Of a stretch of DNA of 64,000 bases, positions 4,934 through 49,582 are shown one piece after another (position 1 is the first letter of the stretch; each line of letters opens with the position of its first letter). Both the position numbers and the translations under genes were made by a program. The notes beneath the pieces are model-generated. The model was not told the DNA's origin. It was given only the letters and a program-made list of their open reading frames with translations, and did no database searches. The stretch is from Bacteroidota bacterium. Its GTDB lineage: Bacteria; Bacteroidota; Bacteroidia; Bacteroidales; VadinHA17. Location of the stretch: positions 786 to 64,785 of the forward strand of contig JBAXXU010000004.1 of the NCBI GenBank assembly GCA_037127735.1, in the 5' to 3' direction.

Positions 4934-6046
4934 ATGAGAAAGGTTTTGAGATATGTGCTGATTTTCACTGCAATAGCAGTGTCTATTCCATTAATCGTCT
5001 TACTATTGATCCGTTTTACACCTCAACCCCCCATAGGTGAAATGGTATTTGCCAGAAAATCTTTATCTCAGGCAGGAAAAAACAAAGCAGATACATATTC
5101 TAAAAAACTTTTTGCCGAGGCGAAGATCTACTATGATTCAGCAATGGTAACCTGGCATAAAGAAAATAAAAGATTTATTCTTTCAAGAGATTACGGGAGG
5201 GTTGCCTTCTTTGCAAAGCTATCTGCAAAAAAAGCAAGTCTGGCCGGAGAAAATTCTATAAGCAGCACATCGAACCTGAAAATAAAACTGAAACAAAAAA
5301 TTGATTCTCTCAATGGTCTTATTTCTGAGAATATTGAACTTTTTACAACATATCCACTATCCTCTGAAACGCGAAATCGTATTTCTAAAGGAAAGATGTT
5401 GCTTAAAGAGGCTGAAATAGCATATAAAAAAGGGCAATATATGCAGGCTGACAGAAAATTAACTGATTCTGAATATCTGCTTACCGCATCATATAATTAT
5501 GCAACTGCAAACCTTAAAAACTATTTCAAATCATTCTCAATATGGAAGAAATGGGCTGACAAAACAATAAATGAATCGAAAAAAAATACTGATTATTCAA
5601 TAATTATTGATAAATTTTCACGAAAATGTTTTGTCTATCTTAATGGTAATAAAAAGTACGAATTTGATGCCGAATTGGGTAAAAACTGGGTTGGCGATAA
5701 AAGAGTCAGAGGAGATAAAGCTACACCGGAGGGAATGTATAAGATAACAAGAAAATTCGATGGGCGTAAGACTAAATACTATAAAGCCCTGTTACTTGAC
5801 TATCCAAACGATGAAGATAAAGAAAATTTTAAATCCGAGATAGAGCATGGCTCCTTACCAAAGTCTGCAAAGATAGGAGGTTTAATAGAAATACATGGCA
5901 ACGGTGGAAAAGGGATTGACTGGACTGAAGGGTGTATAGCCCTCACTGACAAAGAGATGGATGTGGTATTCAAAATTACGAAAGCAGGCACTCCTGTTAC
6001 AATCGTTGGATCGATGGTTGATCTTAAATATGTCGTGAACAGATAA
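4934..6046 (+). CDS. L,D-transpeptidase (YkuD domain) with N-terminal helical DUF4398-like region
   Basis: The C-terminal motif is GGLIEIHGNGGKGIDWTEGCIALTDKEMD (the H...G.C catalytic signature of YkuD). There is an N-terminal TM helix. Confidence 0.75.
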   Translation: MRKVLRYVLIFTAIAVSIPLIVLLLIRFTPQPPIGEMVFARKSLSQAGKNKADTYSKKLFAEAKIYYDSAMVTWHKENKRFILSRDYGRVAFFAKLSAKKASLAGENSISSTSNLKIKLKQKIDSLNGLISENIELFTTYPLSSETRNRISKGKMLLKEAEIAYKKGQYMQADRKLTDSEYLLTASYNYATANLKNYFKSFSIWKKWADKTINESKKNTDYSIIIDKFSRKCFVYLNGNKKYEFDAELGKNWVGDKRVRGDKATPEGMYKITRKFDGRKTKYYKALLLDYPNDEDKENFKSEIEHGSLPKSAKIGGLIEIHGNGGKGIDWTEGCIALTDKEMDVVFKITKAGTPVTIVGSMVDLKYVVNR

Positions 6047-6056
6047 ATTATCTGAT

Positions 6057-6797
6057 ATGGAAAATGACAAGATAATAATTGAAGATCCTCAGCCCGAAAT
6101 AGAGAAAAGGACACGCAATAAAATTCTTCCGGTTTTACACAGTCTCCTTATTGTCTTTGTTTCAATTCTTTCTGTTTTTTTCATTATTTTCTTCATACTT
6201 TACCTTGTCCCGGCACTTCAGGAAATGGTATCTGATCAGAAAACAGAAGTAACAAACAATAAGAAATTGAAACAAGATGCTGCCTATAAAAAGAAGATTA
6301 ACCTGATGGCCCATGAAATAGAGAGGCTTTCAGGCAAATATAATGGCTATACCACCGGGCAATCATATATCGTTATTAATACTACCGATAACAAATTTTC
6401 CCTTTATAAAAATAAAAAACTTATAAGGGGAGGACATTGCAGTACAGGCAAATTATTGAATCTTAAAACGGAAAAGGGCAGGTCGTGGGTATTTAAAACC
6501 CCTAAAGGAAAGAGATCGATTCAGGGAAAAAGAACAAATCCGGCGTGGCATAAACCTGACTGGGCATTTATTGAAGAAGGAGTCCCGGTCCCTCCAAAGG
6601 ATTCTCCGTTGAGATGGGAAGCTAATGTTTTAGGTGATTATGCATTGGATATTGGAGATAGCTACATGATTCATGGAACAATATATAAACGCTTAATGGG
6701 GATGCCGGTCACACACGGCTGTGTTCGTCTCTATGATGAAGATCTTGAGGTCGTTTATAACACGTTAAGTATTGGCTCGAAAGTATATATTTTCTGA
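6057..6797 (+). CDS. L,D-transpeptidase (YkuD domain), membrane anchored
   Basis: YMIHGT...GMPVTHGCVRLYDEDLEVVY is the YkuD catalytic His/Cys motif. There is one N-terminal TM helix. Confidence 0.8.
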   Translation: MENDKIIIEDPQPEIEKRTRNKILPVLHSLLIVFVSILSVFFIIFFILYLVPALQEMVSDQKTEVTNNKKLKQDAAYKKKINLMAHEIERLSGKYNGYTTGQSYIVINTTDNKFSLYKNKKLIRGGHCSTGKLLNLKTEKGRSWVFKTPKGKRSIQGKRTNPAWHKPDWAFIEEGVPVPPKDSPLRWEANVLGDYALDIGDSYMIHGTIYKRLMGMPVTHGCVRLYDEDLEVVYNTLSIGSKVYIF

Positions 6798-6813
6798 TCT
6801 GATAAATAAAACC

Positions 6814-7611
6814 ATGAAAACTGAAATTATCAATCACAGATCTGGCTTACAAATTACTTTCATTATACTGATAATTATTATTGCTGCATTTCTGATTTAT
6901 TACTCAGTGATGTCAGTGTTAGGTCCGGCTAAAAAGATGGAAGCACTAATTAATGAATTTGGTGCCAAAACTACACAAAACCCTATTGATGAAGCCATTA
7001 TTTCAGATTCAACATATCTCTCATTACTTAGGGAGAAATCATTTCTCCAGTCAAGAGTCGTTATGGCAGGAACCGATTCAATATATATTACTATCAGTTT
7101 ACCCGACAGTACGGTTAATGTTGAGATCAGTGGAGTAACTGTTCATACTTCAAAAATTAACGATTTTAAGATAAGCAGTATCCTTGAAGAAGGAAATAAG
7201 AACATAATACTATCGATGTTTGGTGCTCCCTTATCAATTGTAAATGACTATTCCACAATTAGAAAGGAGCCCGTTCTGATCAAGATGGCACCAAAAGATA
7301 CTTCTGAATATATACCTGATGTTATGCCCGATACATCTATCACGGAGCCCGTCAATTATATACTTGAAATGACCCACGGAATCAGGATCTACGTTCACCA
7401 GTCTGAAACTGAAAATTTTAGTGGTAAGTTGAATCTATTCTGGTTCGACACCAGATATCTGTTGCATGATACATGGAGGGAATTAAAGGATATAGTTGCT
7501 TTTAAAATACCTGAATATCATCCATTTATTAAGATACATCTTCCACGAGCCGATGCTAAAATAATCTACCGGGCCCTTCCCCGATACGGCCAAATAGGTA
7601 TGTACAAGTAA
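6814..7611 (+). CDS. Membrane-anchored hypothetical protein
   Basis: The ORF is in the same orientation as and contiguous with the two L,D-transpeptidase genes. An ATG at 6814 is followed by a TM helix (LQITFIILIIIIAAFLIYY). I recognise no motif. Confidence 0.5.
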   Translation: MKTEIINHRSGLQITFIILIIIIAAFLIYYSVMSVLGPAKKMEALINEFGAKTTQNPIDEAIISDSTYLSLLREKSFLQSRVVMAGTDSIYITISLPDSTVNVEISGVTVHTSKINDFKISSILEEGNKNIILSMFGAPLSIVNDYSTIRKEPVLIKMAPKDTSEYIPDVMPDTSITEPVNYILEMTHGIRIYVHQSETENFSGKLNLFWFDTRYLLHDTWRELKDIVAFKIPEYHPFIKIHLPRADAKIIYRALPRYGQIGMYK

Positions 7612-8979: not shown

Positions 8980-9159
8980 TCCCCGTTAAATTATTTGTGA
9001 ATACCTTTCACCGGTTGAGAAAACTTCCAATGTAAGTTTAGAAAATCTGTAATATCACGGTCATACCATGGCATGACACTAATTTTAATAATGATACAAA
9101 CAAATTGATTTACTGATAAAATACCCGGTTATACTTAGGTAACGTCACAATCTGTTGAT

Positions 9160-9167
9160 TACTTTTG
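9160..9167 (+). promoter_or_regulatory. Candidate -7 promoter box (TACTTTTG) for the PqqD/ATP-grasp cluster
   Basis: Matches TAnnTTTG 85 nt upstream of ATG 9253. Confidence 0.3.
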
Positions 9168-9252
9168 TTTGGGATTCTGTCAGATATTATGTTTGTTCAA
9201 TTTATTATTAAACTTAAAACCGGAACGTTGTCAAAACACTAAAGATATAATC

Positions 9253-9495
9253 ATGTTAATAAAAGGGAATATAGCTCTCAGCGAAAACGGATTCGTTTTC
9301 AACCCGACAACAGGCGACTCTTTCACCATGAACAATACCGGTAAAGAAGTTATAATGTTGATAAAAGAAGGTAAGAATATCAATCAGATAACCGAATTGA
9401 TGATGGAAAAATACGATGTGGATCATAATACTCTCGAAAGATATCTGTCCGATTTTGTGAATGATCTTAGTGTGAATAACCTCATGGATGAATAA
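9253..9495 (+). CDS. PqqD-family (RRE-like) small protein
   Basis: 80 aa starting from the internal ATG. FNPTTGDSFTMNNTGKEVIMLIKEGKNINQITELMMEKYDVDHNTLERYLSDFVNDL fits the PqqD pattern. The stop lies 2 nt before the ATP-grasp start. Confidence 0.7.
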   Translation: MLIKGNIALSENGFVFNPTTGDSFTMNNTGKEVIMLIKEGKNINQITELMMEKYDVDHNTLERYLSDFVNDLSVNNLMDE

Positions 9496-9497
9496 TT

Positions 9498-10544
9498 ATG
9501 AAACTGCGTAAAGTAACAGTGGCAGTAACAGGGCTTAACAATATTGACAGTCCGGGCCCGGGAATTCCGGTAATACGCGGAATCAGGGAATCGAAGGATT
9601 TCGACGTCAGGATAATAGGATTGGCCTACGAGCATCTTGAACCCGGTATTTACATGAACGACCTGGTTGATAAAACCTATATGATCCCCTACCCGACTGA
9701 AGGTAAGGACGCTTTATTCAAAAGATTATCGGAAATACATGAGAAGGAGAAATTAGACGTTATTATTCCGAATTTCGATGCTGAGCTCTTTTCATTTATT
9801 AAACTTGAAAAAATGCTGGAGGAAATTGGTATTAAAACCTATCTGCCTACTCTTGAACAGTTTGAAGAGAGAAATAAATCAAACCTTCCGGCTTACGGGA
9901 AAAAATATGGCGTTAATGTCCCTGCCGGTACTGAGGTTTTCAGCGTATCCGATTTAAATAATACCCTTAAATCAATGAACTATCCGGTGATGATCAAGGG
10001 GAAATATTACGATGCTTATGCGGCTAACTCAATGGAGCAGGCAGTAAAACACTTCTCAAATATGTCTGCAAAATGGGGATTCCCGGTTATTGTCCAGGAA
10101 TTTATTAAAGGAACAGAGGTGAATGTTATTGCTCTGGGTGATGGGAAAGGCAATCTGATAGCAGCGGTACCAATGCGTAAACAATACATTACCGATAAGG
10201 GTAAGGCATGGGGAGGCATAACTATTGAAGATGGCACTTTGCTCGATCTTGCAAAAAAGATAATATCGCGAACAAAGTGGAAAGGTGGAATGGAGCTGGA
10301 ACTTATCAGAACAGCTAAAAATAAACTATATCTGCTCGAGATTAACCCCAGAATTCCTGCATGGGTCTATCTCGCAGTCGGAGCGGGTCAGAATATTTCT
10401 GAAGCATTGCTGAAGCTGACATTGGGTATGGAAGTTAAACCATTCACGCGGTACGATGTGGGTAAAATGTTTGTCAGGTACTCCTACGATATGATTGTCG
10501 ATCTGGAACTTTTTTCAAGGCTGACTACAACCGGGGAACTTTAA
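9498..10544 (+). CDS. ATP-grasp domain ligase (carboxylate-amine/peptide ligase type)
   Basis: 348 aa. It has a pre-ATP-grasp N-domain and C-terminal LYLLEINPRIPAWVY (the EINPR motif of ATP-grasp enzymes). Confidence 0.75.
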   Translation: MKLRKVTVAVTGLNNIDSPGPGIPVIRGIRESKDFDVRIIGLAYEHLEPGIYMNDLVDKTYMIPYPTEGKDALFKRLSEIHEKEKLDVIIPNFDAELFSFIKLEKMLEEIGIKTYLPTLEQFEERNKSNLPAYGKKYGVNVPAGTEVFSVSDLNNTLKSMNYPVMIKGKYYDAYAANSMEQAVKHFSNMSAKWGFPVIVQEFIKGTEVNVIALGDGKGNLIAAVPMRKQYITDKGKAWGGITIEDGTLLDLAKKIISRTKWKGGMELELIRTAKNKLYLLEINPRIPAWVYLAVGAGQNISEALLKLTLGMEVKPFTRYDVGKMFVRYSYDMIVDLELFSRLTTTGEL

Positions 10545-10600
10545 TAAAAGTTACAATGGAATAATGGAATCCGATAAAGCAAATAAAACAACAAAGAGTA

Positions 10601-11947
10601 ATGTCAAAGCAAATATTTGAACGACCAACAATAACCCGTTTAACTCCGGGCGTACCATCTAAACACGGAACAGGAACGATAATCGCCCCAATGCCATTAA
10701 TCGATGGAATTAAAGTTGATGATCTCATAGCGGAATACGGGTCTCCACTTTACATTTTCTCAGAAAGGACTATTAGAAAGAGTATGGAGGATATCAAAAG
10801 AGCCTTCAGCATAAGATACAACAAAATACAAATGGCCTGGAGTTACAAAACCAACTATCTCGATTCTATCTGCCGGATATTCCATCAGGAAGGCTCATGG
10901 GCTGAGGTTGTCTCTGGTTTTGAGTACGATAAAGCTTTAAGGAATGGTGTTAAGGGTGAAAATATCATTTTTAACGGTCCCGGAAAGAGTATTGATGATC
11001 TGGAGAAAGCTGTCAGGAATGGATCGTTCATACATATTGATCATATTGATGAGCTTTTTATGTTATCGGATGTTTGCCAGAGAAAAAATATTGAGGCAAG
11101 GGTAGCCGTCAGGGTAAATATGGATATCGGGCTTTATCCCAAATGGGACAGGTTCGGATTGAACTACGAGAATGGAGAGGCCTGGGATGCAATTAATCGT
11201 ATAATGATGAACCCAAAATTAAAATTGATGGGTTTACATACTCATATCGGCACCTACATCATGAGTGTAGATGCTTACCGGGTCGCGGCTACAAAACTTG
11301 CTGATCTGACTTACAATATAGCTCAGAAATTCGACCATCATATTTCGTATATCGATATGGGTGGTGGATTTGCCTCTAAGAATACCCTGAGGGGAGCTTA
11401 CCTTTCCGGTGAAGATACAACTCCTTCATTCGATGAATACGCCGAAGCAATCTCATCTGCAATTATCAATTCCAGGATTAAACCCGATAAACTCCCGACA
11501 TTAATACTTGAGACCGGACGCGCATTAATAGATAACGCGGGCTATATTGCAGGCTCCGTGCTTGCCAATAAGCGACTTTCTGATGGTCGCAGGGCGACTA
11601 TTTTTGATGTTGGTGTGAATCTGCTTTTTACATCATTCTGGTACGATCATAAAATTCACCCGGTAAGCAACCATTCCGGATTGGTTGAAGAGACAACAAT
11701 CTATGGCCCTTTGTGTATGAATATTGATGTTCTGCGACCATCACTGATGTTCCCTGCACTGAAACGCGGCGACAGGTTCGTGATAACAAGAACAGGAGCT
11801 TATAATAACACCCAGTGGTTACAGTTTATAACCATGCGTCCAAATGTGGTATTGATAGATATGAACAGAGAGGTTCATCTTATCAGACGGGCAGAGTCAA
11901 TGGAGAATGTATCAGAAAATGAGGTAATTCCGGAGTACTTGGTTTGA
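10601..11947 (+). CDS. PLP-dependent decarboxylase, Orn/DAP/Arg decarboxylase (fold type III) family
   Basis: WSYKTNY (PLP-lysine context), HTHIGT, IDMGGGFAS, ILETGRALI and TGAYN are the conserved blocks of DAP/ornithine decarboxylase-like enzymes. Confidence 0.8.
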   Translation: MSKQIFERPTITRLTPGVPSKHGTGTIIAPMPLIDGIKVDDLIAEYGSPLYIFSERTIRKSMEDIKRAFSIRYNKIQMAWSYKTNYLDSICRIFHQEGSWAEVVSGFEYDKALRNGVKGENIIFNGPGKSIDDLEKAVRNGSFIHIDHIDELFMLSDVCQRKNIEARVAVRVNMDIGLYPKWDRFGLNYENGEAWDAINRIMMNPKLKLMGLHTHIGTYIMSVDAYRVAATKLADLTYNIAQKFDHHISYIDMGGGFASKNTLRGAYLSGEDTTPSFDEYAEAISSAIINSRIKPDKLPTLILETGRALIDNAGYIAGSVLANKRLSDGRRATIFDVGVNLLFTSFWYDHKIHPVSNHSGLVEETTIYGPLCMNIDVLRPSLMFPALKRGDRFVITRTGAYNNTQWLQFITMRPNVVLIDMNREVHLIRRAESMENVSENEVIPEYLV

Positions 11948-11951
11948 AACC

Positions 11952-12028
11952 AAAGACAAAAGACAAAAGACAAAAGACAAAAGACAAAAGACAAAAGACA
12001 AAAGACAAAAGTAAAAAGATAAAAGTCA
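11952..12028 (+). repeat. AAAGACA heptamer tandem array (8 perfect + 3 degenerate copies)
   Basis: Read directly from the sequence. The array starts 5 nt after the TGA at 11945-11947. It is followed by GAAACAC GAAACAT at 12040-12053. Confidence 0.95.
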
Positions 12029-12063
12029 AATCTAAACCCGAAACACGAAACATCCCCCAATAA

Positions 12064-14241
12064 ATGTTAAAGAACTCCTCAATATCAACTTTTATTCAGG
12101 GAGTATTAAGAAGCTACTCCCAGATCTTCTTCTCAGAGAATTACTGGTTTGCCATTCCTTTGGTTATAGTTTCCTTCCTCGATATTTCTGCCGGTTTAGC
12201 CGGGTTGCTTTCGGTATTGACCGCTAATCTCGCGGCTTCGTTATTGAAGTTTGATAAACTGACAACCATAAAAGGGTTTTATGGTTTCAATAGCCTCCTG
12301 GTGGGACTGGGGTTAGGGTACTATTATGAATTAACCTTTGTAATAATTGTAATAGCAATATTATCAGGGTTTTTAACCCTTCTAATCACAATTACTTTCC
12401 AGGGTATTTTAGGCAAATATTACCTTCCTTATCTCTCGATTCCATTCGTTATATGTATCTGGATTGTCTTAAGTGCCGGAGGCATGTTAAGCGGGACAGA
12501 AGATAATCAAAGCGGTGTTTACATTCTGAATAAACTCTTTGTTATTGGCGGGCATCCTCTTGTAAATCTGCATCAATGGTTAGTCGGGAAGATCACATCC
12601 AATTTTGTAAACAGCTACTTTCTCTCTTTGGGCGCAATATTCTTCCAGTTTAATGTTTTTGCGGGATTTGTTGTAGCCGTCGCGTTGATTTTTTATTCGA
12701 GGATCGCCTTTATGCTTTCTTTACTTGGCTATGGTGTTGCCTACATGGCTTACTCCTTTTTTGGCACAGACATGACCCAATTGGGCTATAGTTATATAGG
12801 GTTTAACTTCATTTTAGGCGCTATAGCTATCGGTGGGTATTTTTATATCCCATCTAAACAGTCATTCTTCTGGGCATTTGCAATAACACCTGTAACCGCC
12901 CTGGTTTCAGCAGGTCTGTTTGTTTTGCTAAAACCTTTTAATCTGACTTTGCTATCGCTCCCATTTAACTTAATTCTTTTAACTTTTATCTATTCACTAA
13001 GATTCAGAACATCTCAGGGTAAGTTCAGGGAGGTATTGATTCAGGAAGGTACACCGGAAAGTAACCTGTATTCATACGAGAGCTTTTCCAAACGGTTTCC
13101 TAACTTCGGCCGGCTTCAGATAAGACTCCCTTTCCTGGGCGAATGGCATGTCAGTCAGGGACATAACGGAGATGACACTCATAAAAGCGAATGGGCCGAT
13201 GCATGGGATTTTGTTATTATCAACTCAGATTCATCTCAGTATAACTTCGAGGGGAATTATCTGCAGGACTATTTCTGTTTTGGACAGAATATAATTGCAC
13301 CGGCTGATGGAACAGTGGTTATTGCAGAGGATGGAACCGATGATAATAAAATTGGAGAAGTTAATACTTTCAAGAACTGGGGAAATACTGTTATAATCAA
13401 ACATGCCGAAGGGCTATATTCAAAACTTTGTCATCTCCGGAAAGGATCTATCCCTGTAAAAGCCGGCGATAATGTCCATTATGGTCAGGTTATCGGGAAA
13501 GTCGGAAATTCAGGACGTTCCCCTTATCCGCATCTTCATTTTCAGATTCAATCAACCCCCTACATTGGTTCAAAAACATTAAAATACCCAATATTTGTCT
13601 ATTTAGAAAACGGGAAAGAGATCAGGACTTTTAGTTATCCTTCCAAAGGCAATAAAGTAAAAACCATTGAAGAGAATTCACTCCTTAAAAAGGCTTTTAA
13701 TCTGATGCCGGTTACAAAACTGAACTGGACTGTCACTACTTCCGGAATAGCAGATTCAGTTACCTGGGAAGTCATCACCAACTCTTATAATAATTCCTAT
13801 ATTTTCTGTCATGCTACAAAATCTCTGGCTTATTTCCAGTACGATGGAGTTCACTTCTGCTTCACCCATTTTGCCGGCGACAGGCGATCTTTGCTCTACA
13901 ATTTCTATCTGGCAGCATTCAGATTACCTCTTGTAAATATTGATGAATATATCACAACCGATTCTTTGCCAATAAATCAGACATTTAAAGGATGGAGACT
14001 TTTCCTTCACGATTTTACAGCTCCTTTCTTCCTATACCTGAAAGTAAGCTTTAAGGTTAGTATAAAACTTATTGGCTCTGAGTTCGATCCGGACAGGATT
14101 GAGTACAGTTCAAAACTTTCGGGTTACTCATTTAGTCAAACAATTTGGACTAAAGGCTTCAAACTTATTGTAAACAGAGATAATAGCATGAAAATGGAAA
14201 CCGATCTCCTGGAAATAGAAGCTATATGCGAATCTTTTTAA
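12064..14241 (+). CDS. Fusion protein: urea-transporter-like (UT) membrane domain + M23 metallopeptidase domain + unknown C-terminal domain
   Basis: The N-terminal ~320 aa are polytopic, with FIQGVLRSYSQIFFSEN typical of the UT family. Residues ~345-500 carry M23 motifs (HKSEWADAWDF; GNSGRSPYPHLHFQI). The last ~225 aa have no motif I recognise. Confidence 0.75.
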   Translation: MLKNSSISTFIQGVLRSYSQIFFSENYWFAIPLVIVSFLDISAGLAGLLSVLTANLAASLLKFDKLTTIKGFYGFNSLLVGLGLGYYYELTFVIIVIAILSGFLTLLITITFQGILGKYYLPYLSIPFVICIWIVLSAGGMLSGTEDNQSGVYILNKLFVIGGHPLVNLHQWLVGKITSNFVNSYFLSLGAIFFQFNVFAGFVVAVALIFYSRIAFMLSLLGYGVAYMAYSFFGTDMTQLGYSYIGFNFILGAIAIGGYFYIPSKQSFFWAFAITPVTALVSAGLFVLLKPFNLTLLSLPFNLILLTFIYSLRFRTSQGKFREVLIQEGTPESNLYSYESFSKRFPNFGRLQIRLPFLGEWHVSQGHNGDDTHKSEWADAWDFVIINSDSSQYNFEGNYLQDYFCFGQNIIAPADGTVVIAEDGTDDNKIGEVNTFKNWGNTVIIKHAEGLYSKLCHLRKGSIPVKAGDNVHYGQVIGKVGNSGRSPYPHLHFQIQSTPYIGSKTLKYPIFVYLENGKEIRTFSYPSKGNKVKTIEENSLLKKAFNLMPVTKLNWTVTTSGIADSVTWEVITNSYNNSYIFCHATKSLAYFQYDGVHFCFTHFAGDRRSLLYNFYLAAFRLPLVNIDEYITTDSLPINQTFKGWRLFLHDFTAPFFLYLKVSFKVSIKLIGSEFDPDRIEYSSKLSGYSFSQTIWTKGFKLIVNRDNSMKMETDLLEIEAICESF

Positions 14242-15500
14242 TTATTGCAGTATTATTATTGGCCGGTTCAGCAAATTTGTCGGCTCAGTATGATTTTAAA
14301 GTACTCGATGAGAAAACATACGATTACTACATGAAGGGTGATTACAGAAATCTGAAAAAAGTGGCAGACACAATGCTTTCACAAGGAGTCGATTACTATT
14401 ACCTTAGGATGAGAATGGGAATTTTATCATACAATAAACAGTTGTATTCAAGCGCTTTAAAACATTTTAACAAAGCGATAGAGTTTAGCTCGCCGGATAC
14501 AATTTCGAGAGAGTATATATACTATAGTTACCTTTATTCCGGAAGAGAAGCAGATGCTAAACTATACCTTAAATCTATACCCCGCGACAAAAAAAACAGT
14601 ACGCTGAAATCATCATGTAAACCTTCTTATTCTGAATTCTATGTTGGTTCTTATGCTTCTGTTCACGATGCAGTTCTTTATGAAAAAAATAGCCTGAACT
14701 ACGAGGCAGTGAAAAACAGTTTAAGTATCAATGCCGGGTTTGAAACATATTTCTTAAGCAGATTCAAGGGAACCTTTGCTTATACAAACTTTCACAAAAC
14801 CGGAACAGTTTACTCTCCTTCCCATCCGGCAGGGACAGATCTTAACTTTACCCAAAATCAGGTTTACGCCAAACTAACAGGTTCAATTTTCCCGGGTTGG
14901 GATTTTTCAGGGTTTGCCCATTTTGTGCTTTATACCGAAGCAATTACTGTCGGGCCGGTAGGAAACAGAGTTACAACAAATCAAATAAAAACTGAATATC
15001 TTGGAGGTGTGGGTATTTCAAAAAACGGATGGAAAATTCGCACCGGGGCTAACTTATCGTTCAGCAATTTCAGCAACTCAAACCAAATCAGGGGTGAGGG
15101 ATATTTTACCTGGCTGCCATCCGGAAATCTAAATCTCTATCTTGCTTCCGCATGGTTGGGACAAATCGATACAAACTGGGGGGGAACTTATCAGGTAAGT
15201 CAGGAGATAGGATTAAAGATTTGTAAGTTACTCTGGATGGAAACCGGGGTGGTTAAGGGGAACTCATTTCTATCTGCAAGGAATCAGGGATTTATGATAA
15301 ATAATTCATTTCAGATTCCTGCAACTACTATCTACAGCAACATAATCATTTTGCCGGGTAAACATTTTAGGCTTGACATCACACCTTACTATGTTGAAAA
15401 TCAGATTTACTCATGGGATTTAAATGCTTTTTCAAGAACCAATAAGCTGAATATTAATTCATTCGGAGGATCACTTAAATTAATTTATAAGTACAAATAA
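14226..15500 (+). CDS. Secreted hypothetical protein, TPR-like N-terminus and beta-rich C-terminus (possible outer-membrane protein)
   Basis: It has a signal peptide (IAVLLLAGSANLSAQ). It overlaps the preceding gene by 16 nt. Alternating-hydrophobicity strands run toward the C-terminus. Confidence 0.5.
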   Translation: MRIFLIIAVLLLAGSANLSAQYDFKVLDEKTYDYYMKGDYRNLKKVADTMLSQGVDYYYLRMRMGILSYNKQLYSSALKHFNKAIEFSSPDTISREYIYYSYLYSGREADAKLYLKSIPRDKKNSTLKSSCKPSYSEFYVGSYASVHDAVLYEKNSLNYEAVKNSLSINAGFETYFLSRFKGTFAYTNFHKTGTVYSPSHPAGTDLNFTQNQVYAKLTGSIFPGWDFSGFAHFVLYTEAITVGPVGNRVTTNQIKTEYLGGVGISKNGWKIRTGANLSFSNFSNSNQIRGEGYFTWLPSGNLNLYLASAWLGQIDTNWGGTYQVSQEIGLKICKLLWMETGVVKGNSFLSARNQGFMINNSFQIPATTIYSNIIILPGKHFRLDITPYYVENQIYSWDLNAFSRTNKLNINSFGGSLKLIYKYK

Positions 15501-15502
15501 CT

Positions 15503-16114
15503 ATGAAGAGATTAACCTTACTAACAGCTCTGCTTTTTTTAGTCTTAGTATCAATGGCACAGGATTATACTAAGTTAACTGCAGCATTCAGCGATAGCTA
15601 TGCGAAAGAAAAATCAGAGAAGTATGGCGATGCTATCACAGCATTGAAAGCATACTACGACGTTAATTCCTATGAGATTAACCTGAGGCTTGGATGGTTA
15701 ACCTATCTCCAGGGACAGTTCTCTGAATCAACGGGTTATTATAATAAAGCCATTGAGTTGATGCCTTATGCTATAGAACCCCGTTTGGGTGTAGTTCTAC
15801 CGGCTTCTGCTCTTGGTAACTGGGATTTGGTTATAGTTCAGTATAATAAGATTCTCGCAATTGATCCCAACAACACACTTACCCTATATCGCATGGGACT
15901 TATTCTGTATGATAAGAAAGATTATAAGCTGGCCTATCAGCAATTTGAAAAGGTTGTCAACCTTTATCCCTTCGATTACCAAAGTGTCCTAATGCTTGCA
16001 TGGACAAACTACAGGCTGGGAAAAACACGTGAAGCAAAAATTCTTTTCAACAAAGCTTTGCTTTACTATCCCGAGGATGCCAGTGCAAAAGAGGGGCTTA
16101 GTCTGATAAAGTAA
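15503..16114 (+). CDS. Secreted tetratricopeptide-repeat protein
   Basis: It has a signal peptide. TPR-like repeats are present (YYNKAIELMPY, YNKILAIDPNN, FEKVVNLYPFD, FNKALLYYPED). It starts 2 nt after the previous stop. Confidence 0.7.
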   Translation: MKRLTLLTALLFLVLVSMAQDYTKLTAAFSDSYAKEKSEKYGDAITALKAYYDVNSYEINLRLGWLTYLQGQFSESTGYYNKAIELMPYAIEPRLGVVLPASALGNWDLVIVQYNKILAIDPNNTLTLYRMGLILYDKKDYKLAYQQFEKVVNLYPFDYQSVLMLAWTNYRLGKTREAKILFNKALLYYPEDASAKEGLSLIK

Positions 16115-16154
16115 AGACAAAAGACAAAAGACAAAAGTAAAAAGACAAAAGTAG
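16113..16154 (+). repeat. AAAGACA heptamer tandem array (6 copies, 2 degenerate)
   Basis: Read directly. The first copy overlaps the TAA stop at 16112-16114. Confidence 0.95.
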
Positions 16155-16212
16155 CCCATGCAGGGGGTGAGTTCATGGGGATTAGAGCGGTTAGGGGTGG
16201 GGTTTTCAAGAC
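16155..16212. repeat. GC-rich palindromic intergenic element
   Basis: CCCATG...CATGGG is an inverted repeat. It contains GGGGTGAGTTCATG (16164-16177), which recurs as an exact reverse complement at 59075-59088. Confidence 0.7.
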
Positions 16213-16235
16213 AAAAGGCAACATAAAAAATAAAA

Positions 16236-17342
16236 ATGCACAAAAATAAATTAAAATATACCGAAATAGGACTAATCATACTCGTTTGGATGGTTCTTCT
16301 GTTCACTCCGATTCTTTTCAGGGAAGATATTTACAGCCCGATACGAAGAAGTGTAATTATGCAGCTGCAAACTCTTATCCCGTTATTGTCATTGTTTCTT
16401 ATAAATCGTTTTATTCTTGTTCCCCTATTACTTTTTAAAGGGAAACAGATGTTCTTCATAATTTCAGTATTGGGACTAATACTACTATTTACTGCAGGTT
16501 CTTTTGTTTTTGACACAACTATCAAAAATATACCACCCGGAAGTATCCCGCAAATGGAAGATCAGATAAAACAACCGCCTTATGCTTTCCCGGGTGGAGT
16601 GGACACGTTTGGAAATTTGCGCCCGGCTCAGACGCGTCAGCCCAGGCCCATTCCTCCTTATGCTAACTTTTTAATTCTGTCAATACTTATAGTAGGTTTT
16701 GATACCGGCTTACGCTCAGGTCTTCGAGGAATAAATATTGAAAATGAAAAGGCAAGACTTGAAAAAGAAAGTGTGGCTACTCAACTGGTCCTATTACGGA
16801 ATCAGGTAAGCCCGCATTTTTTAATGAATACCCTGAACAATATCCATTCACTGGTTGATGTTAATGCAGAGGAGGCCAAAGAGGCTATAATCAAGTTGTC
16901 GAAAATGATGAGGTATCTATTGTATGAAACCGAAACTGAAAAAACAACTTTAATAAGAGAAGTCGAATTTCTTGAGAGTTATATAAACCTTATGAAACTC
17001 AGGTATAATGAAAGTGTTAAAATTACACTTAACTTACCGGCTATGATTCCTGAAAAGACAATTCCTCCGTTTATATTTACTTCATTGATAGAAAATGCTT
17101 TTAAACATGGGGTAAGTTATAAGGATGAATCGTTTATCAATATTGATATGACCATAGGTGAAGAACAACTTCTCCTGGTTGTAAAAAACAGCAAAACTGA
17201 TAAATCCCCGATTAAAGAATTTTCCGGTATAGGAATTGAAAACACCCGGAAACGTTTAGAGTTACTGTATGGTAAAAATTACCACCTCGATATAATTGAC
17301 GGTACAGATTTATTCACCGTAAACCTATCTCTTCCATTATGA
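16236..17342 (+). CDS. LytS/YehU-type sensor histidine kinase
   Basis: It has a membrane N-terminal half. QVSPHFLMNTLNNIHSL (His_kinase domain) and an HATPase-like C-terminus (ENAFKHG, GIGIENTRKRL) are present. Confidence 0.8.
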   Translation: MHKNKLKYTEIGLIILVWMVLLFTPILFREDIYSPIRRSVIMQLQTLIPLLSLFLINRFILVPLLLFKGKQMFFIISVLGLILLFTAGSFVFDTTIKNIPPGSIPQMEDQIKQPPYAFPGGVDTFGNLRPAQTRQPRPIPPYANFLILSILIVGFDTGLRSGLRGINIENEKARLEKESVATQLVLLRNQVSPHFLMNTLNNIHSLVDVNAEEAKEAIIKLSKMMRYLLYETETEKTTLIREVEFLESYINLMKLRYNESVKITLNLPAMIPEKTIPPFIFTSLIENAFKHGVSYKDESFINIDMTIGEEQLLLVVKNSKTDKSPIKEFSGIGIENTRKRLELLYGKNYHLDIIDGTDLFTVNLSLPL

Positions 17343-18055
17343 TCAGATGCATAGCAATTGATGACGAACCCCTGGCTTTGAGGCAGATTGCCGGTTACAT
17401 TAAGAAAACGCCTTTTCTTGAACTGGCAGGGCAATGCGAAAGTGCAATGCAGGCAATAGAAGTATTGGAAAGCGCTCCGGTTGACCTGATGTTTGTTGAT
17501 ATTAATTTGCCTGATCTTAGCGGTATGGATTTCGCTAAAACCCTTGACAACCCTCCTAAGATTGTTTTTGTCACGGCTTATAGCGAATATGCACTTGAGG
17601 GTTTCAGGGTTGATGCTCTCGACTATTTGCTTAAACCTATCAGTTATGTTGATTTCTTAAAGTCAGCCAATAAGGTCAAATCGTGGTTCGATACCCATCA
17701 TCAGGAATCAGATGAAGTAAGGAGTAATAAGGATTTTTTATTCATAAAATCTGGTTATAAATTACTTAGAATTAACTTTGACGATATTAAGTATATCGAG
17801 GGAATGAGCGAGTATATCAGAATTCACCTTACGAATGCTAAACCGGTAATGACCCTTCTGAGTATGAAGTCTGTTGAGGCGATTTTACCCCCGGACAGGT
17901 TCCTGAGGGTGCACAGATCTTATATTGTTAACCTTACAAAGATTTCAGTGATAGAAAGGAACCGGATAATTTTCGATGCGAATGTCTATATACCCGTGAG
18001 TGAACAGTATAAAAGTAATTTTCAGAAATACATTGATAAAAATTTTTTAAGCTGA
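17339..18055 (+). CDS. LytTR-family response regulator
   Basis: REC domain (IAIDDEP...DLMFVDINLPDLSG...LLKP) plus a LytTR C-terminus (RVHRSYIVNL). An ATGA overlap with the kinase gene suggests translational coupling. Confidence 0.85.
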   Translation: MIRCIAIDDEPLALRQIAGYIKKTPFLELAGQCESAMQAIEVLESAPVDLMFVDINLPDLSGMDFAKTLDNPPKIVFVTAYSEYALEGFRVDALDYLLKPISYVDFLKSANKVKSWFDTHHQESDEVRSNKDFLFIKSGYKLLRINFDDIKYIEGMSEYIRIHLTNAKPVMTLLSMKSVEAILPPDRFLRVHRSYIVNLTKISVIERNRIIFDANVYIPVSEQYKSNFQKYIDKNFLS

Positions 18056-18116: not shown

Positions 18117-18328
<212 letters not shown>

Positions 18329-30978: not shown

Positions 30979-31026
30979 ATGTGTAATTTATTTAAAAATA
31001 GAGTTTCATCCGGCCACTTAAACTTT

Positions 31027-31061
31027 TGTCTTTTATCTTTTGTCTTTTGTCTTTTGTCTTT
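31027..31061 (-). repeat. AAAGACA heptamer array (5 copies, minus-strand sense)
   Basis: The plus strand reads TGTCTTT TATCTTT TGTCTTT TGTCTTT TGTCTTT. It ends 2 nt from the stop codon (31064-31066) of the minus-strand gene. Confidence 0.95.
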
Positions 31062-42154: not shown

Positions 42155-43132
42155 TTGCAACGTAAAGGCAAAAGATGGGATGGGGTTCCATTACCAAATA
42201 TTTCTGTTGCAGAATTAAAGCAAGAGTCATTTGATTTTTTTCGCAAAAGAGCACTTAAAAGCCAACGAATTGAAGAAGATATATTGACAGATTCTAACGA
42301 ACTTCTTATTGAAAATCTTCAATTAAAAGAAAATGCGTTTCTAAAACGGGCAGCTATTTTACTGTTTCATCCTAAACCTGAAAAATTTATTACCGGGTCA
42401 TTCATTAAAATAGGTTTTTTTGAAACAGATGATGACCTGAAATTTCAGGACGAAATACACGGTAATCTATTTGAACAGATTGAAAAGGCAATGGATTTAC
42501 TTTTTACCAAATACATTAAAGCCGAAATAAGTTACGAGGGTATTAGTAGAGTCGAAAAATATGAATATCCGAAAGATGCGGTTCGTGAAGCTCTGTTAAA
42601 TGCTATTGCTCACAAAGACTATTCAGGAGGTGTGCCCATACAGATTAGTGTTTACAACGACAAAATCATTTTTTGGAACGAAGGTCAATTACCGGAGAAT
42701 TGGACAATTGAAAGTCTTTTGACCAAACATCCATCAAAACCCTATAAACCTGATATTGCCAACGCCCTTTTCAGAAGCGGTTACATTGAATCGTGGGGAC
42801 GTGGAACTTTAAAGATGATTAAAGAATGTATTGACGCTGGTTTACCTAAACCTTTGTACTACTACGACATGTCGGGCTTTTTTGTGGAGTTTAGAAAAGA
42901 CATATTCAGTGAGAAATATCTTAAATCTCTTGGATTAAATGATCGGCAGGAAAAAGCAATTATATTCATTAAAGAAAAAGGTAAAATTTCGAATAGTGAG
43001 TATCAGGATCTAAACAATGTATCTAAGGCCACAGCTACAAGAGATTTATCAGAACTTGTTGAGAAATATGAAATTTTAAGAAGAGCCGGTGACATTGGGG
43101 CTGGAACTAATTATGTTTTGATTGGCTCATAA
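42155..43132 (+). pseudogene. N-terminally truncated AlbA_2/HATPase_c_4-type putative DNA-binding ATPase (often mis-annotated RecG-like)
   Basis: The reading frame opens only at 42125, with no ATG; the track uses TTG. The sequence begins in the linker (GKRWDGVPL). The usual about 120-aa N-terminal AlbA_2 domain is absent. A C-terminal wHTH is present (NSEYQDLNNVSKATATRDLSELV). Confidence 0.5.
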
Positions 43133-43180
43133 TTGGCTCAATTGGCTCATAATGGGCTCATAATTGGCTCAATTGCATCA
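43121..43180 (+). repeat. TTGGCTCA tandem array, period 9/11, 5-6 copies
   Basis: ATTGGCTCATA ATTGGCTCA ATTGGCTCATA ATGGGCTCATA ATTGGCTCA ATTGCATCA, read directly. The first copy encodes the last codons and the TAA stop (43130-43132). Confidence 0.9.
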
Positions 43181-49404: not shown

Positions 49405-49416
49405 CTTAAGGCATGG

Positions 49417-49444
49417 GGCGCAGGGCGCAGGGCGCAGGGCGCAG
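49417..49444 (+). repeat. GGCGCAG heptamer x4
   Basis: Read directly. It starts 13 nt after the TAG stop at 49402-49404. Confidence 0.95.
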
Positions 49445-49582
49445 GGTTCATCTTATAAACAAGTTAAAGGTAAGGTAAGTTAACGAAATTTATGTCTGGA
49501 CAGCCTCTGCGCAGGCAAGAGTTTTGCAGCCCATACTTGCAACCATCCCTTCACTGCCAAACACATGTTTTTTTGCCTACCC

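Follow-up and report, generated by a model that had tools for sequence, protein, structure and literature searches.

A conserved bacterial gene cluster joins a PqqD-like protein, an ATP-grasp ligase and a PLP decarboxylase to a channel-hydrolase fusion

Within a 64,000-nucleotide stretch of a Bacteroidota contig, hereafter the window, we identified six genes that form one real, tightly packed and conserved functional unit (Table 1). For its enzymes the best-supported chemistry is a ligation whose product is then decarboxylated, and we tentatively read the whole as a self-contained, envelope-spanning pathway that may make and release a small nitrogen-containing amide or amine. No publication on this gene combination was found in the literature, nor any account of a UT-family channel fused to an M23 or sirtuin domain. 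Inspection of the window bears out the six co-directional, tightly spaced open reading frames (ORFs) described in the first-pass annotation, with the gaps matching exactly, and Pfam and NCBIfam matches confirm its domain calls (PqqD, ATP-grasp, PLP decarboxylase, UT::M23 and TPR). The gene content of the span it proposed (9160-16154) also stands, but the cluster ends at 16114; the remaining letters hold a second copy of a heptamer array that lies outside the cluster.

Table 1. Features of the gene cluster and its surroundings in the window
Feature	Position	Strand	Size, basis or description
Bacteroidetes-type promoter-like site (TTTG ... TAtgTTTG)	9164..9195	+	Consensus match; directly upstream of PqqD-like gene
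PqqD-like protein, stand-alone RRE-type domain	9253..9495 (longer ORF from 9169)	+	80 aa; Pfam PqqD 6e-11
ATP-grasp ligase, carbamoyl-phosphate-synthetase-like / ATPgrasp_Ter branch	9498..10544	+	348 aa; Pfam, NCBIfam
Alanine-racemase-fold PLP decarboxylase, FslC/FigC-like	10601..11947	+	448 aa; Pfam
AAAGACA heptamer array, decarboxylase to UT::M23 gap	11952..12030	.	TRF, 11.3 copies
UT::M23 inner-membrane fusion protein	12064..14241	+	725 aa; Pfam UT, Peptidase_M23; UT-family channel about 1-340, M23 metallopeptidase about 345-505, beta-rich domain of unknown fold at the C-terminus, about 510-725
Signal-peptide protein: periplasmic TPR and predicted outer-membrane beta-barrel	14226..15500	+	424 aa; AF2 model
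Small secreted TPR protein	15503..16114	+	203 aa; several TPR Pfam families
Second copy of heptamer array	16113..16151
LytS-type histidine kinase and LytTR response regulator	16236..18055	+	Pfam His_kinase, Response_reg and LytTR

The genes are separated by 2 nt, 56 nt, 116 nt, a 16-nt overlap and 2 nt. For the first of them the most likely start is the ATG at 9253 rather than the TTG of the longer ORF; the public gene call uses this ATG, and the promoter-like site falls within the longer ORF. That site is the sole plus-strand match to TTTG-N17-23-TANNTTTG between 9000 and 18000, close relatives retain its elements upstream of their PqqD-like gene, and it represents a putative promoter of a six-gene operon. 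The operon reading follows from the short gaps seen in many genomes (-28 to +12 nt), from this single upstream promoter-like site and from the lack of a terminator-like site in the intergenic regions inside the cluster. The PqqD-like gene overlaps the ATP-grasp gene or lies 2 nt away from it in all relatives. The 116-nt gap is occupied by an AAAGACA array (about 11 copies) present only in this genome and absent at all related loci, where the decarboxylase and UT::M23 genes are spaced by -4 to 9 nt and many abut or overlap. That is to say, the array is a genome-specific spacer and no conserved part of the system.

Co-occurrence of the six genes, which the first-pass annotation had put forward as a check, proved far above chance: of the 57 GTDB species loci that could be tested, 53 carry all six with the order kept, and the first three occur together in all 67 species loci. 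A core of PqqD-like protein, ATP-grasp, PLP decarboxylase and UT-channel fusion recurs in Riflebacteria, in a Betaproteobacteria MAG and in over 500 metagenome contigs, including 80 diverse metagenome loci taken from at least 588 relatives. The system is therefore not limited to Bacteroidota and is conserved across several bacterial phyla. Draconibacterium and Maribellus are among its cultured carriers. Because natural PqqD::ATP-grasp (P0203) and ATP-grasp::decarboxylase (P0167) fusions exist, the three enzymes are functionally linked. Two architectures are apparent, one of the window type with a single ATP-grasp module, UT::M23, the outer-membrane barrel and the small TPR protein, and another with two ATP-grasp modules and a UT::sirtuin. 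Partial sets also occur: the L033 genome holds the first three genes with no copies of the rest nearby, and Crocinitomicaceae carry the PqqD-like/ATP-grasp pair only. The LytS/LytTR pair noted directly downstream in the first-pass annotation is present, but it holds this place in the closest relatives only. It is a lineage-specific neighbour outside the conserved core and a possible regulator; different two-component pairs adjoin the system in other lineages.

Inspection of the PqqD-like family reveals no conserved attachment residue, a glycine being the sole invariant position, and an unconserved C-terminus. A covalent carrier role of the BtrI or LysW type, the precedent first invoked for this protein, therefore appears unlikely, and a non-covalent adaptor or RRE fits better. 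Its best NCBIfam matches are PqqD-family peptide chaperones, all below cut-off. The ATP-grasp protein matches Pfam ATPgrasp_Ter / ATP-grasp_3 (5e-12), and 231 representative clusters score E<=1e-30. Among solved structures its best relative is 2pn1 (profile E 4e-9), a protein of unknown function. Its invariant positions include K167, E266/E268 and E281-x-N283-x-R285, which we take to be the ATP/Mg-binding residues of ATP-grasp enzymes.

The decarboxylase matches Pfam Orn_Arg_deC_N (2e-29) together with its C-terminal counterpart. Assignment as LysA/DAP decarboxylase was rejected: the lysA model scores 222 bits, below its cut-off of 298, and the residues that define DAP specificity are missing. 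The nearest solved structure is instead the N-citrylornithine decarboxylase 7kh2 (FigC/FslC; 1e-53, against 1e-36 for DAPDC), and BtrK is also detectable as a homologue (E 1e-30). As in FigC, the DAPDC arginine is replaced by threonine and the acidic residue after the catalytic cysteine by methionine; both replacements are invariant across phyla, as are the motifs SYKTNY, T344 and GPLCM(N/Q)(I/V)D. The active site has no residues for binding a free amine or the DAP carboxylate, and by these sequence features the enzyme resembles decarboxylases that act on conjugated substrates. FslC itself acts on N-acylated ornithine. The window enzyme has Gln and Ile in place of R387 and H357, which bind citrate in FigC, and the acyl group of the conjugate is therefore not citrate. 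FigC, SbnH, AcsE, MccE and BtrK form one decarboxylase clade acting on conjugated amino acids (PMC7857480). This clade and the natural fusions uphold the ligation-then-decarboxylation part of the carrier- or peptide-templated scheme proposed earlier, but not its covalent carrier.

The fourth gene encodes a channel-hydrolase fusion in which Pfam detects UT at residues 12-310 (1.3e-55) and Peptidase_M23 at residues 407-497 (1.5e-19). The AF2 model (pLDDT 84.8, pTM 0.74) retrieves UT structures first and M23 structures next, and the UT part aligns full-length to dvUT 3k3f. The pore-lining glutamines are kept, with both threonines of the Q-T-T-Q motif changed to serine, and H373, D382, H457, H490 and H492 of the M23 part are invariant; judged from such motifs, the catalytic residues of all enzymes of the system are intact. 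The hydrolase domain and the UT C-terminus lie on the same side of the membrane. Since the UT domain is complete, no hydrophobic segment follows residue 312 and UT termini are intracellular at both ends (PMC11589576), a cytoplasmic location is predicted for the M23 domain. Other lineages carry at this position an NAD-dependent sirtuin with canonical motifs, whose need for NAD likewise argues for the cytoplasmic side. The fusion architecture called earlier thus holds, but the M23 as an envelope processing peptidase does not. Whatever module is fused to the channel, be it M23, a sirtuin or a sirtuin plus GNAT, it is always an enzyme that acts on amides.

The 424-aa protein, previously described as a secreted beta-rich protein, does have that beta content, and its reading changes to a predicted TPR and outer-membrane barrel protein. 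It has no Pfam or NCBIfam match. In the AF2 model, TPR helices (24-117) reach pLDDT above 90, and about 14-16 strands (157-421) that would form the barrel remain at a low-confidence pLDDT of 40-67. The top fold match is BcsC (E 1e-5, weak TM of 0.39), the family consensus ends C-terminally in W-x-F, and one relative bears the UniRef name YaiO-family OMP. Of 29 type I metagenome loci that could be read, 26 encode the 203-aa TPR protein, and a same-size homologue adjoins the Betaproteobacterial system (28% identity, E 3e-20). Both kinds of envelope partner recur with the system across phyla.

From these data we infer substrates, step order, direction of transport and the roles of the TPR and outer-membrane proteins as follows. 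In the cytoplasm, the PqqD-like protein would sit on the ATP-grasp ligase as a non-covalent adaptor and present the acyl or amine partner, which is probably a peptide or a segment of a protein. The ligase would make a side-chain (omega) amide of isopeptide type in which one partner keeps a free alpha-amino-acid head, and the FslC-like decarboxylase would take the alpha-carboxylate off the conjugated amino acid. The M23 domain, or the sirtuin in the sister architecture, may then cleave or deprotect the conjugate at the inner pore mouth, so that a small, largely uncharged product could exit through the UT-family pore and be handled by the small TPR protein and the TPR-barrel protein in the periplasm and outer membrane. 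Several points stand against this pathway. If the fused hydrolase merely reverses the bond made by the ligase, the result is a futile cycle. The first-pass annotation saw no convincing precursor gene in the cluster, and a search of roughly 170 loci and their flanks likewise turned up neither a precursor nor a carrier gene, yet to our knowledge all characterised PqqD/RRE domains bind peptides. The UT pore is narrow, and the solutes that we know of for it are urea-sized and neutral only. The very divergent UT domains of the sirtuin type, the low-confidence barrel model and the partial sets of L033 and Crocinitomicaceae weigh in the same direction.

The PqqD/RRE match, with peptide-maturation chaperones as nearest NCBIfam models, would also suit a true RiPP or scaffold-peptide natural-product pathway with its precursor gene elsewhere in the genome, which we regard as rather unlikely. 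The RRE would then deliver a ribosomal peptide, the ATP-grasp would extend a side chain or the C-terminus by an amino acid, the decarboxylase would trim as its clade member MccE does in microcin C, and M23 would be a leader or scaffold peptidase. Precursors almost always adjoin their enzymes, however, and no conserved small ORF was found in the cluster or within 4 kb at 80 genome loci, nor was one apparent in 80 metagenome loci. The ATP-grasp identity of 62-91% across Bacteroidales families and the invariant decarboxylase site are unusual for specialised metabolism, and the ligase falls in the CPS-like rather than the graspetide branch. Two-component systems often adjoin the operon, which is in keeping with a RiPP pathway, and a stand-alone RRE, an ATP-grasp enzyme and a scaffold peptide cooperate in fosfazinomycin assembly (PMC13622209). 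Reversible modification of a lysine or acidic tail of a cellular protein is improbable: aminoacylation by the ATP-grasp and decarboxylation would yield an aminoalkyl-acyl group resembling hypusine or beta-lysyl-lysine, with M23 or sirtuin as eraser and UT mainly as membrane anchor or sensor. Canonical sirtuins deacylate N-epsilon-acyl-lysine, one is fused at the M23 position, some variants add a GNAT domain, and ATP-grasp enzymes of the RimK, LysX and TTL types modify protein tails. Such a scheme leaves the conserved pore residues and the co-occurring periplasmic TPR and outer-membrane barrel without a role, and no candidate target gene lies nearby. The acidic C-terminal tail of most Bacteroidales PqqD-like proteins would favour it, but the tail is missing in outgroups and in the PqqD::ATP-grasp fusion.

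Uptake or salvage, in which UT would admit a urea-like or amide nutrient, the fused hydrolase would trap it and the ATP-grasp and decarboxylase would assimilate the product, seems quite improbable. Channel-enzyme coupling for metabolic trapping is an established principle (urease at UreI, GlpK at GlpF), the UT fold and pore glutamines are kept, amtB-glnK adjoins the Betaproteobacterial locus, and a dedicated outer-membrane barrel suits uptake as well as export. In contrast, an ATP-consuming ligase, an RRE and a biosynthetic FigC/BtrK-clade decarboxylase are atypical of catabolism, a sirtuin is unlikely as a catabolic amidase, and the conserved neighbours of the system include no urease, amidase regulon or nitrogen regulator. 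Very improbable is cell-wall remodelling, where the ATP-grasp would add a diamino acid to a peptidoglycan precursor, like the D-aspartate ligase Aslfm, for conversion by the decarboxylase into a diamine substituent. Peptidoglycan endopeptidase is the usual activity of M23 enzymes and the name that public annotations give the fusion protein; ATP-grasp ligases build peptidoglycan side chains, and Negativicutes have diamine-substituted peptidoglycan. Here, however, the M23 that would act on peptidoglycan is predicted to be cytoplasmic and gives way to an NAD-dependent sirtuin in the sister architecture, a stem peptide is not an expected ligand for an RRE, and the conserved neighbours include no mur, pbp or flippase genes. 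Ordinary lysine or polyamine metabolism, or chance juxtaposition of unrelated genes, is scarcely credible despite automated annotations as diaminopimelate decarboxylase, carbamoyl-phosphate synthase large subunit and urea transporter, being contradicted by both the active-site and the co-occurrence tests: the lysA score, the replaced DAP-binding arginine and acidic residue, the conserved order and spacing and the fusions that link the proteins all speak against it.

The envelope-spanning ligation-decarboxylation pathway that we favour resembles several known systems in part. The LysW/LysX/LysK amino-group carrier system also combines a small acidic protein, an ATP-grasp and a metallopeptidase that frees the product and regenerates the carrier. 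LysW, however, ends in a conserved EDWGE glutamate and blocks the alpha-amino group that a PLP decarboxylase needs free, and the window ligase matches the rimK/LysX family only marginally (E 1e-3). In the scaffold-peptide pathways (3-thiaglutamate and pearlins; fosfazinomycin FzmZ/FzmT/FzmF), RiPP machinery likewise builds a small molecule on a peptide, using a stand-alone RRE and, in fosfazinomycin, an ATP-grasp, before a peptidase releases the product (PMC13622209). These clusters encode their scaffold peptide, whereas none was found at the window-type loci, and they have neither a channel-fused hydrolase nor a decarboxylase of the window type. PCAT transporters with a C39 peptidase, ClbP prodrug activation and UreI-urease also couple a conduit to a cargo-cleaving enzyme at the membrane, whereas the window enzyme is predicted to be cytoplasmic and its conduit a passive, narrow pore. 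The BcsC, PgaA, PelB and AlgK/AlgE exporters share a layout in which a TPR domain in the periplasm precedes a barrel in the outer membrane, but the structural match is weak, the window system has no glycosyltransferase synthase and its inner-membrane partner cannot pass a polymer.

In butirosin biosynthesis (BtrI/BtrJ/BtrK, Bacillus circulans), an ATP-grasp couples the side-chain carboxylate of an amino acid to a small partner protein, the amino acid so tethered is the substrate of an alanine-racemase-fold PLP decarboxylase and a later enzyme removes a protecting group; BtrJ ligates twice, recalling the two-module ATP-grasp variants. BtrI, however, is a phosphopantetheinylated acyl carrier protein rather than a PqqD/RRE fold, the window decarboxylase is closer to FslC than to BtrK, aminoglycoside genes are absent, and butirosin has no counterpart of the UT-fused hydrolase, the TPR protein or the outer-membrane barrel. 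Rhizoferrin synthesis by FslA(FigA)/FslC(FigC), with the related SbnH and AcsE, differs in using an NIS synthetase instead of an ATP-grasp, in lacking a PqqD-like protein and in the citrate-binding residues of its decarboxylase. It nevertheless follows the same logic, in that an N-acyl (omega-amide) amino acid is made and its alpha-carboxylate then removed, by the closest solved relative of the window decarboxylase, with the same threonine and methionine in the active site. Transport genes for the inner and outer membrane are likewise part of the fsl operon itself.

The six co-directional open reading frames described in the first-pass annotation were recovered with spacings of 2, 56, 116, -16 and 2 nt, and profile searches upheld its PqqD, ATP-grasp, Orn/DAP/Arg PLP decarboxylase, UT, Peptidase_M23 and TPR assignments. 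The fifth product is a 424-aa protein without a family match, whereas the sixth belongs to the TPR proteins. The PqqD-like gene most likely begins at the ATG at 9253 (80 aa), in agreement with the public gene call made on a metagenome contig of identical sequence. Upstream lies a promoter-like site that is the sole plus-strand match within 9000-18000, where the gaps of the cluster hold no terminator-like sites and neither leader nor gaps hold riboswitches or other Rfam elements. Inspection of the 116-nt gap bears out the heptamer array reported there, an AAAGACA repeat. A second array follows the operon's TPR gene and a third lies farther along the window. The array is absent from all related loci and is thus a peculiarity of the window genome, where these arrays are a dispersed, genome-specific intergenic simple repeat. 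Two other short tandem repeats occur in the window. A tRNA gene unrelated to the operon (57.7 bits to Rfam) sits shortly after the LytTR gene, with a terminator-like hairpin on the same strand. Upstream of a nucleoside transporter gene, two adjacent YkuD-type L,D-transpeptidase genes occur with SprB/PorP gliding and T9SS genes, none of which is conserved beside the operon in other genomes. PADLOC anti-phage models matched none of the six operon proteins, and a known defence system was rejected.

To survey conservation, one genome per GTDB species was scanned with the window ATP-grasp protein, which returned 80 loci from Bacteroidales/Marinilabiliales lineages, including Prolixibacteraceae, Draconibacterium, Maribellus, Mariniphaga and Salinivirgaceae; Tenuifilaceae were among the protein-search matches. 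The first-pass annotation had staked its cluster on co-occurrence in related genomes, and tblastn with window proteins found all six genes co-directional and in unchanged order in 53 of the 57 loci long enough to test, and the first three genes in all loci examined for them (67/67). The genes abut or overlap throughout in many genomes (gaps of 5, 12, 0, -19 and -13 nt in locus L077), which indicates an operon-like arrangement with no space for an internal precursor gene. At one locus, L033, only the first three genes are kept at that place. The LytS/LytTR pair does lie directly downstream in the window, as first noted, but it recurs only in the closest relatives and is not a general partner. 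In Prolixibacteraceae-type loci (L025, L029, L030, L041, L044, L053, L060, L070 and others), a conserved secreted protein of ~263 aa with a T9SS C-terminal sorting domain follows the TPR gene after 9-25 nt and may be a lineage-specific seventh gene. A T9SS-tail protein also precedes the PqqD-like/ATP-grasp pair in Crocinitomicaceae locus L083.

The system extends well beyond these lineages. A search of 1.8 billion cluster representatives gave 231 clusters at E<=1e-30 to the ATP-grasp protein, many of them ~710-aa proteins with two tandem ATP-grasp modules, and a metagenome scan with the decarboxylase profile gave at least 588 relatives, of which 80 loci were kept and annotated with HMMs built from operon parts. 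Automated classification mis-scored some loci because stop-to-stop ORFs overlap, and the architecture counts were therefore read directly from the annotation table of the 80 loci. About 45 loci have the window's architecture (type I), with PqqD, one ATP-grasp module, the decarboxylase and UT::M23 with its beta-rich C-terminal domain, usually ending in an outer-membrane protein and a small TPR protein. About 23 (type II) encode a large TPR protein and PqqD, then two ATP-grasp modules, either fused or in neighbouring genes, then the decarboxylase and a UT channel fused to a sirtuin (UT::SIR2); some of them add a GNAT domain or a further SIR2 gene, and one variant is UT::SIR2::GNAT. The covariation is perfect: in every readable locus one ligase module accompanies M23 and two accompany the sirtuin.

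Individual carriers illustrate both types. Riflebacteria have TPR genes upstream of PqqD, ATP-grasp, decarboxylase and UT::M23, and the full six-gene order occurs in one lineage without taxonomic assignment. A high-GC soil contig and a Betaproteobacteria MAG share the order TPR lipoprotein, PqqD, double ATP-grasp, decarboxylase and UT::SIR2, where the MAG also encodes a homologue of the window's small TPR protein (E 3e-20) and a barrel-like protein of 292 aa that carries a signal peptide. In this MAG the system adjoins amtB-glnK (ammonium channel and PII protein), a neighbourhood seen once that may hint at a link to nitrogen status. In Crocinitomicaceae, no more than the small PqqD-like protein and the ATP-grasp is kept. 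Natural fusions (Pfam) join PqqD to ATP-grasp in protein P0203 and ATP-grasp to decarboxylase in protein P0167. A search for plasmid-borne relatives gave one distant Streptomyces match (27% identity) in an unrelated context. One further UT fusion, at L094, ends in a domain resembling a degenerate sirtuin, which retains the Zn-ribbon cysteines and has lost the QNxDxLH and catalytic His motifs; an alpha/beta-hydrolase gene comes after it.

Coordinates of features in the window and in related loci
Feature	Position	Strand	Remark
Bacteroidetes-type promoter-like site, TTTG ... TAnnTTTG	9164-9195	+	Consensus match, kept in close relatives
AAAGACA heptamer arrays, 3-11 copies	11952-12030, 16113-16151, 31023-31061 (- strand)		Directly 3' of three genes' stop codons
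Decarboxylase N-terminal tail	10601-10700		Residues 1-33
tRNA gene	18242-18328	-	
Terminator-like hairpin	18228-18208	-	
Other short tandem repeats	49416-49446 and 43121-43171		GGGCGCA x4.4 and 11-mer x4.8
YkuD-type gene pair	5437-7300 (L001 numbering)		
System adjoining amtB-glnK	L096 16884-18752		Betaproteobacteria MAG
UT fusion with sirtuin-like domain	L094 6717-8324		
Type II loci	L098-L121, L085, L090, L096		Two ATP-grasp modules and UT fused to canonical sirtuin

By the first-pass annotation, a match of the ligase and decarboxylase to a known pathway such as lysine synthesis would refute its reading, and two tests of the decarboxylase as LysA failed: the lysA model TIGR01048 scores 221.8 bits against a curated cut-off of 297.9, and the specificity residues named for FigC (PMC7857480), mapped by HMMER alignment, place Thr344 where diaminopimelate decarboxylase (DAPDC) has the Arg that binds the distal carboxylate, and Met373, after the catalytic Cys372, where an acidic residue binds the free side-chain amine. 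LysA is thereby ruled out. FigC shares both replacements, and among solved structures the N-citrylornithine decarboxylase FslC/FigC is nearest (1e-53), followed by diaminopimelate decarboxylases (1e-36) and BtrK (1e-30). FigC, SbnH, AcsE, MccE and BtrK form one clade that decarboxylates amino acids already conjugated (PMC7857480). N-citrylornithine decarboxylase itself is ruled out: the citrate binders R387 and H357 of FigC are replaced by Gln405 and Ile375, the FslC/FigC model NF041039 gives 215 bits where its cut-off is 500, and the window locus holds no NIS synthetase. Across 76 sequences, distant phyla among them, Thr344, Met373, Gln405, Ile375 and the SYKTNY motif of the PLP lysine vary little or not at all, which argues for the same substrate in all lineages, one that is neither a citryl conjugate nor DAP, Orn or Lys whose side chain is free. 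Judged from these residues, it is most probably an uncharged, amide-linked amino acid. That the ATP-grasp enzyme may handle the same substrate is suggested by the adjacency of the two genes everywhere, their fusion in P0167 and the BtrK homology. The N-terminal tail of the decarboxylase carries a cross-phylum motif (K5, (F/Y)-E10-x-P12-x-I, K24) that is without equivalent where DAPDC or FslC can be aligned and may be a docking peptide. Its Lys was rejected as an acylation site, being conserved in 16/16 sequences but replaced in the ATP-grasp::decarboxylase fusion.

The PqqD-like protein bears on two of the rival explanations. It has a PqqD-like domain (Pfam PqqD 6e-11, above the gathering score), as expected of a RiPP recognition element (RRE), and a RiPP pathway whose precursor gene is remote from the operon would account for it. 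The earlier remark that no convincing precursor gene is visible holds across about 170 loci: clustering of all ATG ORFs in 80 loci yielded only lineage-specific neighbours and no conserved ORF of >=25 aa within 4 kb of the cluster, aligned upstream DNA of 16 close relatives conserves only the promoter-like element and no precursor ORF, and no precursor peptide gene was evident in the 80 metagenome loci. These searches cover ORFs of >=25 aa near the operon, and very short or remotely encoded peptides fall outside them. The ATP-grasp best matches ATPgrasp_Ter, PRK12767 (CPS-like) and 2pn1, with no match of the graspetide type, a known RiPP class, and we consider a RiPP pathway rather unlikely. 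Across phyla the PqqD-like protein has no invariant Lys, Asp, Glu or Ser, Gly being its only invariant residue, and its C-terminal tail is internal in the PqqD::ATP-grasp fusion; no attachment-point residue is conserved. Reversible modification of a cellular protein, the rival in which ligase and sirtuin or M23 would act on a resident target, appears improbable to us.

The channel fusion bears on the other two, uptake with metabolic trapping and cell-wall remodelling. Its UT part is complete (Pfam UT 1.3e-55, profile positions 2-289 of 292), aligns end to end to the Desulfovibrio urea channel dvUT (residues 10-335) and has UT structures as its top fold matches, in keeping with the family's fold of ten transmembrane and two re-entrant helices. 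The pore glutamines Q20 and Q195 are invariant, where the Thr positions of the urea-recognition Q-T-T-Q pattern are Ser125 and Ser/Ala298. The urea transporter model TIGR03441 gives 114 bits, its cut-off being 275, and no urease genes lie near the operon in the window. Uptake with trapping strikes us as having little chance of being right. For cell-wall remodelling, the Peptidase_M23 match (1.5e-19) and the Zn-binding and catalytic residues H373, D382, H457, H490 and H492, invariant in sets of 27 and 121 sequences, fit a peptidoglycan endopeptidase. However, UT::M23 has no hydrophobic segment after residue 312, UT termini face the cytoplasm (PMC11589576), and the same position is taken in type II systems by a sirtuin whose motifs for NAD binding, catalytic His and Zn are intact, which together predict an M23 domain in the cytoplasm, away from peptidoglycan. 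An extracytoplasmic location with access to peptidoglycan is therefore not predicted, and remodelling is very improbable. The AlphaFold2 model of UT::M23, a confident one (pLDDT 84.8, pTM 0.74), includes the beta-rich C-terminal domain (510-725), for which Pfam gave no match and the fold-search list was filled by UT and M23 matches.

In the envelope, the 424-aa protein carries a signal peptide and a TPR domain (24-117) that AlphaFold2 models confidently, followed by about 14-16 strands at low confidence, and its family consensus ends in W-x-F. Its best fold match is the TPR-barrel exporter BcsC, weakly (E 1e-5, TM 0.39). Since no glycosyltransferase is conserved in the loci and the BcsC likeness is only weak, synthase-dependent exopolysaccharide export of the BcsC/PgaA type is not supported. 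Of the envelope components, the small TPR protein is conserved best. No homology was found by hhalign between the Betaproteobacterial 292-aa protein and the window outer-membrane protein, so the two are comparable in architecture only.

Taken together, the comparisons show that the operon genes are one unit, that its three cytoplasmic proteins work together and that the channel carries an amide-acting enzyme, predicted to be cytoplasmic, from which we infer an order of steps. The ATP-grasp and PqqD-like adaptor would make a side-chain amide, leaving the alpha-amino-acid head free; the decarboxylase would take off the carboxylate of that head; the channel-fused M23 or sirtuin would cleave or deprotect this conjugate beside the pore; and a small product would exit the cell. 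The one chemical feature that the two swapped modules share is that M23 DD-endopeptidases, like sirtuins, cut acyl bonds at the side-chain amine of diamino acids. We speculate, by analogy with BtrJ in butirosin synthesis, that the extra ligase module accompanying the sirtuin adds a protecting acyl group. The boldest reading that fits the data, to which we give clearly less than an even chance, is an undescribed, multi-phylum, envelope-spanning metabolite factory, in which an RRE-type adaptor would work without a dedicated precursor gene, the ATP-grasp ligase and FslC-like decarboxylase would build a tethered or protected amine, and the UT-family pore with its cytoplasmic M23 or sirtuin would couple cleavage to release. 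The main weakness of the inferred mechanism is the partner bound by the PqqD-like protein, for which about 170 loci gave neither a precursor or carrier gene nor a conserved attachment residue.

If correct, thousands of environmental bacteria, among them Bacteroidales/Marinilabiliales, Riflebacteria, Betaproteobacteria and many uncultured lineages, would make a small nitrogen compound by one conserved route, and three familiar protein families would acquire new functions: the PqqD/RRE domain would act where the cluster encodes no precursor, a UT 'urea transporter' would serve as an enzyme-coupled outlet, and an M23 'peptidoglycan' peptidase or a sirtuin would act on a pathway intermediate in the cytoplasm. 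The routine annotations of diaminopimelate decarboxylase, carbamoyl-phosphate synthase, urea transporter and peptidoglycan DD-metalloendopeptidase are corrected. Cultured carriers exist (Draconibacterium, Maribellus), so the question is directly testable. Consistent with the first-pass remark that it knew of no assigned pathway, full-text literature searches found nothing for PqqD, ATP-grasp and decarboxylase in Bacteroidetes, nor for UT with M23 or sirtuin or for the cluster's annotation words, and recent RRE surveys do not mention the system.

By analogy, the operon logic has precedents in the butirosin, rhizoferrin, LysW and scaffold-peptide pathways, and it fails the defining tests of each family. 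The butirosin carrier analogy originally drawn does not hold, where BtrI (of BtrI/J/K) is a phosphopantetheinyl carrier with a conserved Ser and the window system has instead a PqqD fold without that Ser. The parallel with LysX/LysW fails likewise: LysW carries a conserved C-terminal Glu (EDWGE) and is served by a LysX/RimK-family ligase, whereas the window protein ends in ...MDE, a tail not conserved among its variable relatives, which makes a LysW-like covalent carrier unlikely, and its ligase reaches 18.5 bits (E 1e-3) with the rimK_fam model, whose cut-off is 143. FslC/FigC differ in their citrate binders and NIS synthetase partner, and BcsC/PgaA exporters in pairing a TPR-barrel outer-membrane protein with an inner-membrane glycosyltransferase synthase. 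RRE-dependent RiPP clusters differ in their adjacent precursor and known-class modifying enzyme and have the RRE in common with the window operon, and in fosfazinomycin, a scaffold-peptide pathway, a stand-alone RRE and an ATP-grasp likewise occur together (PMC13622209).
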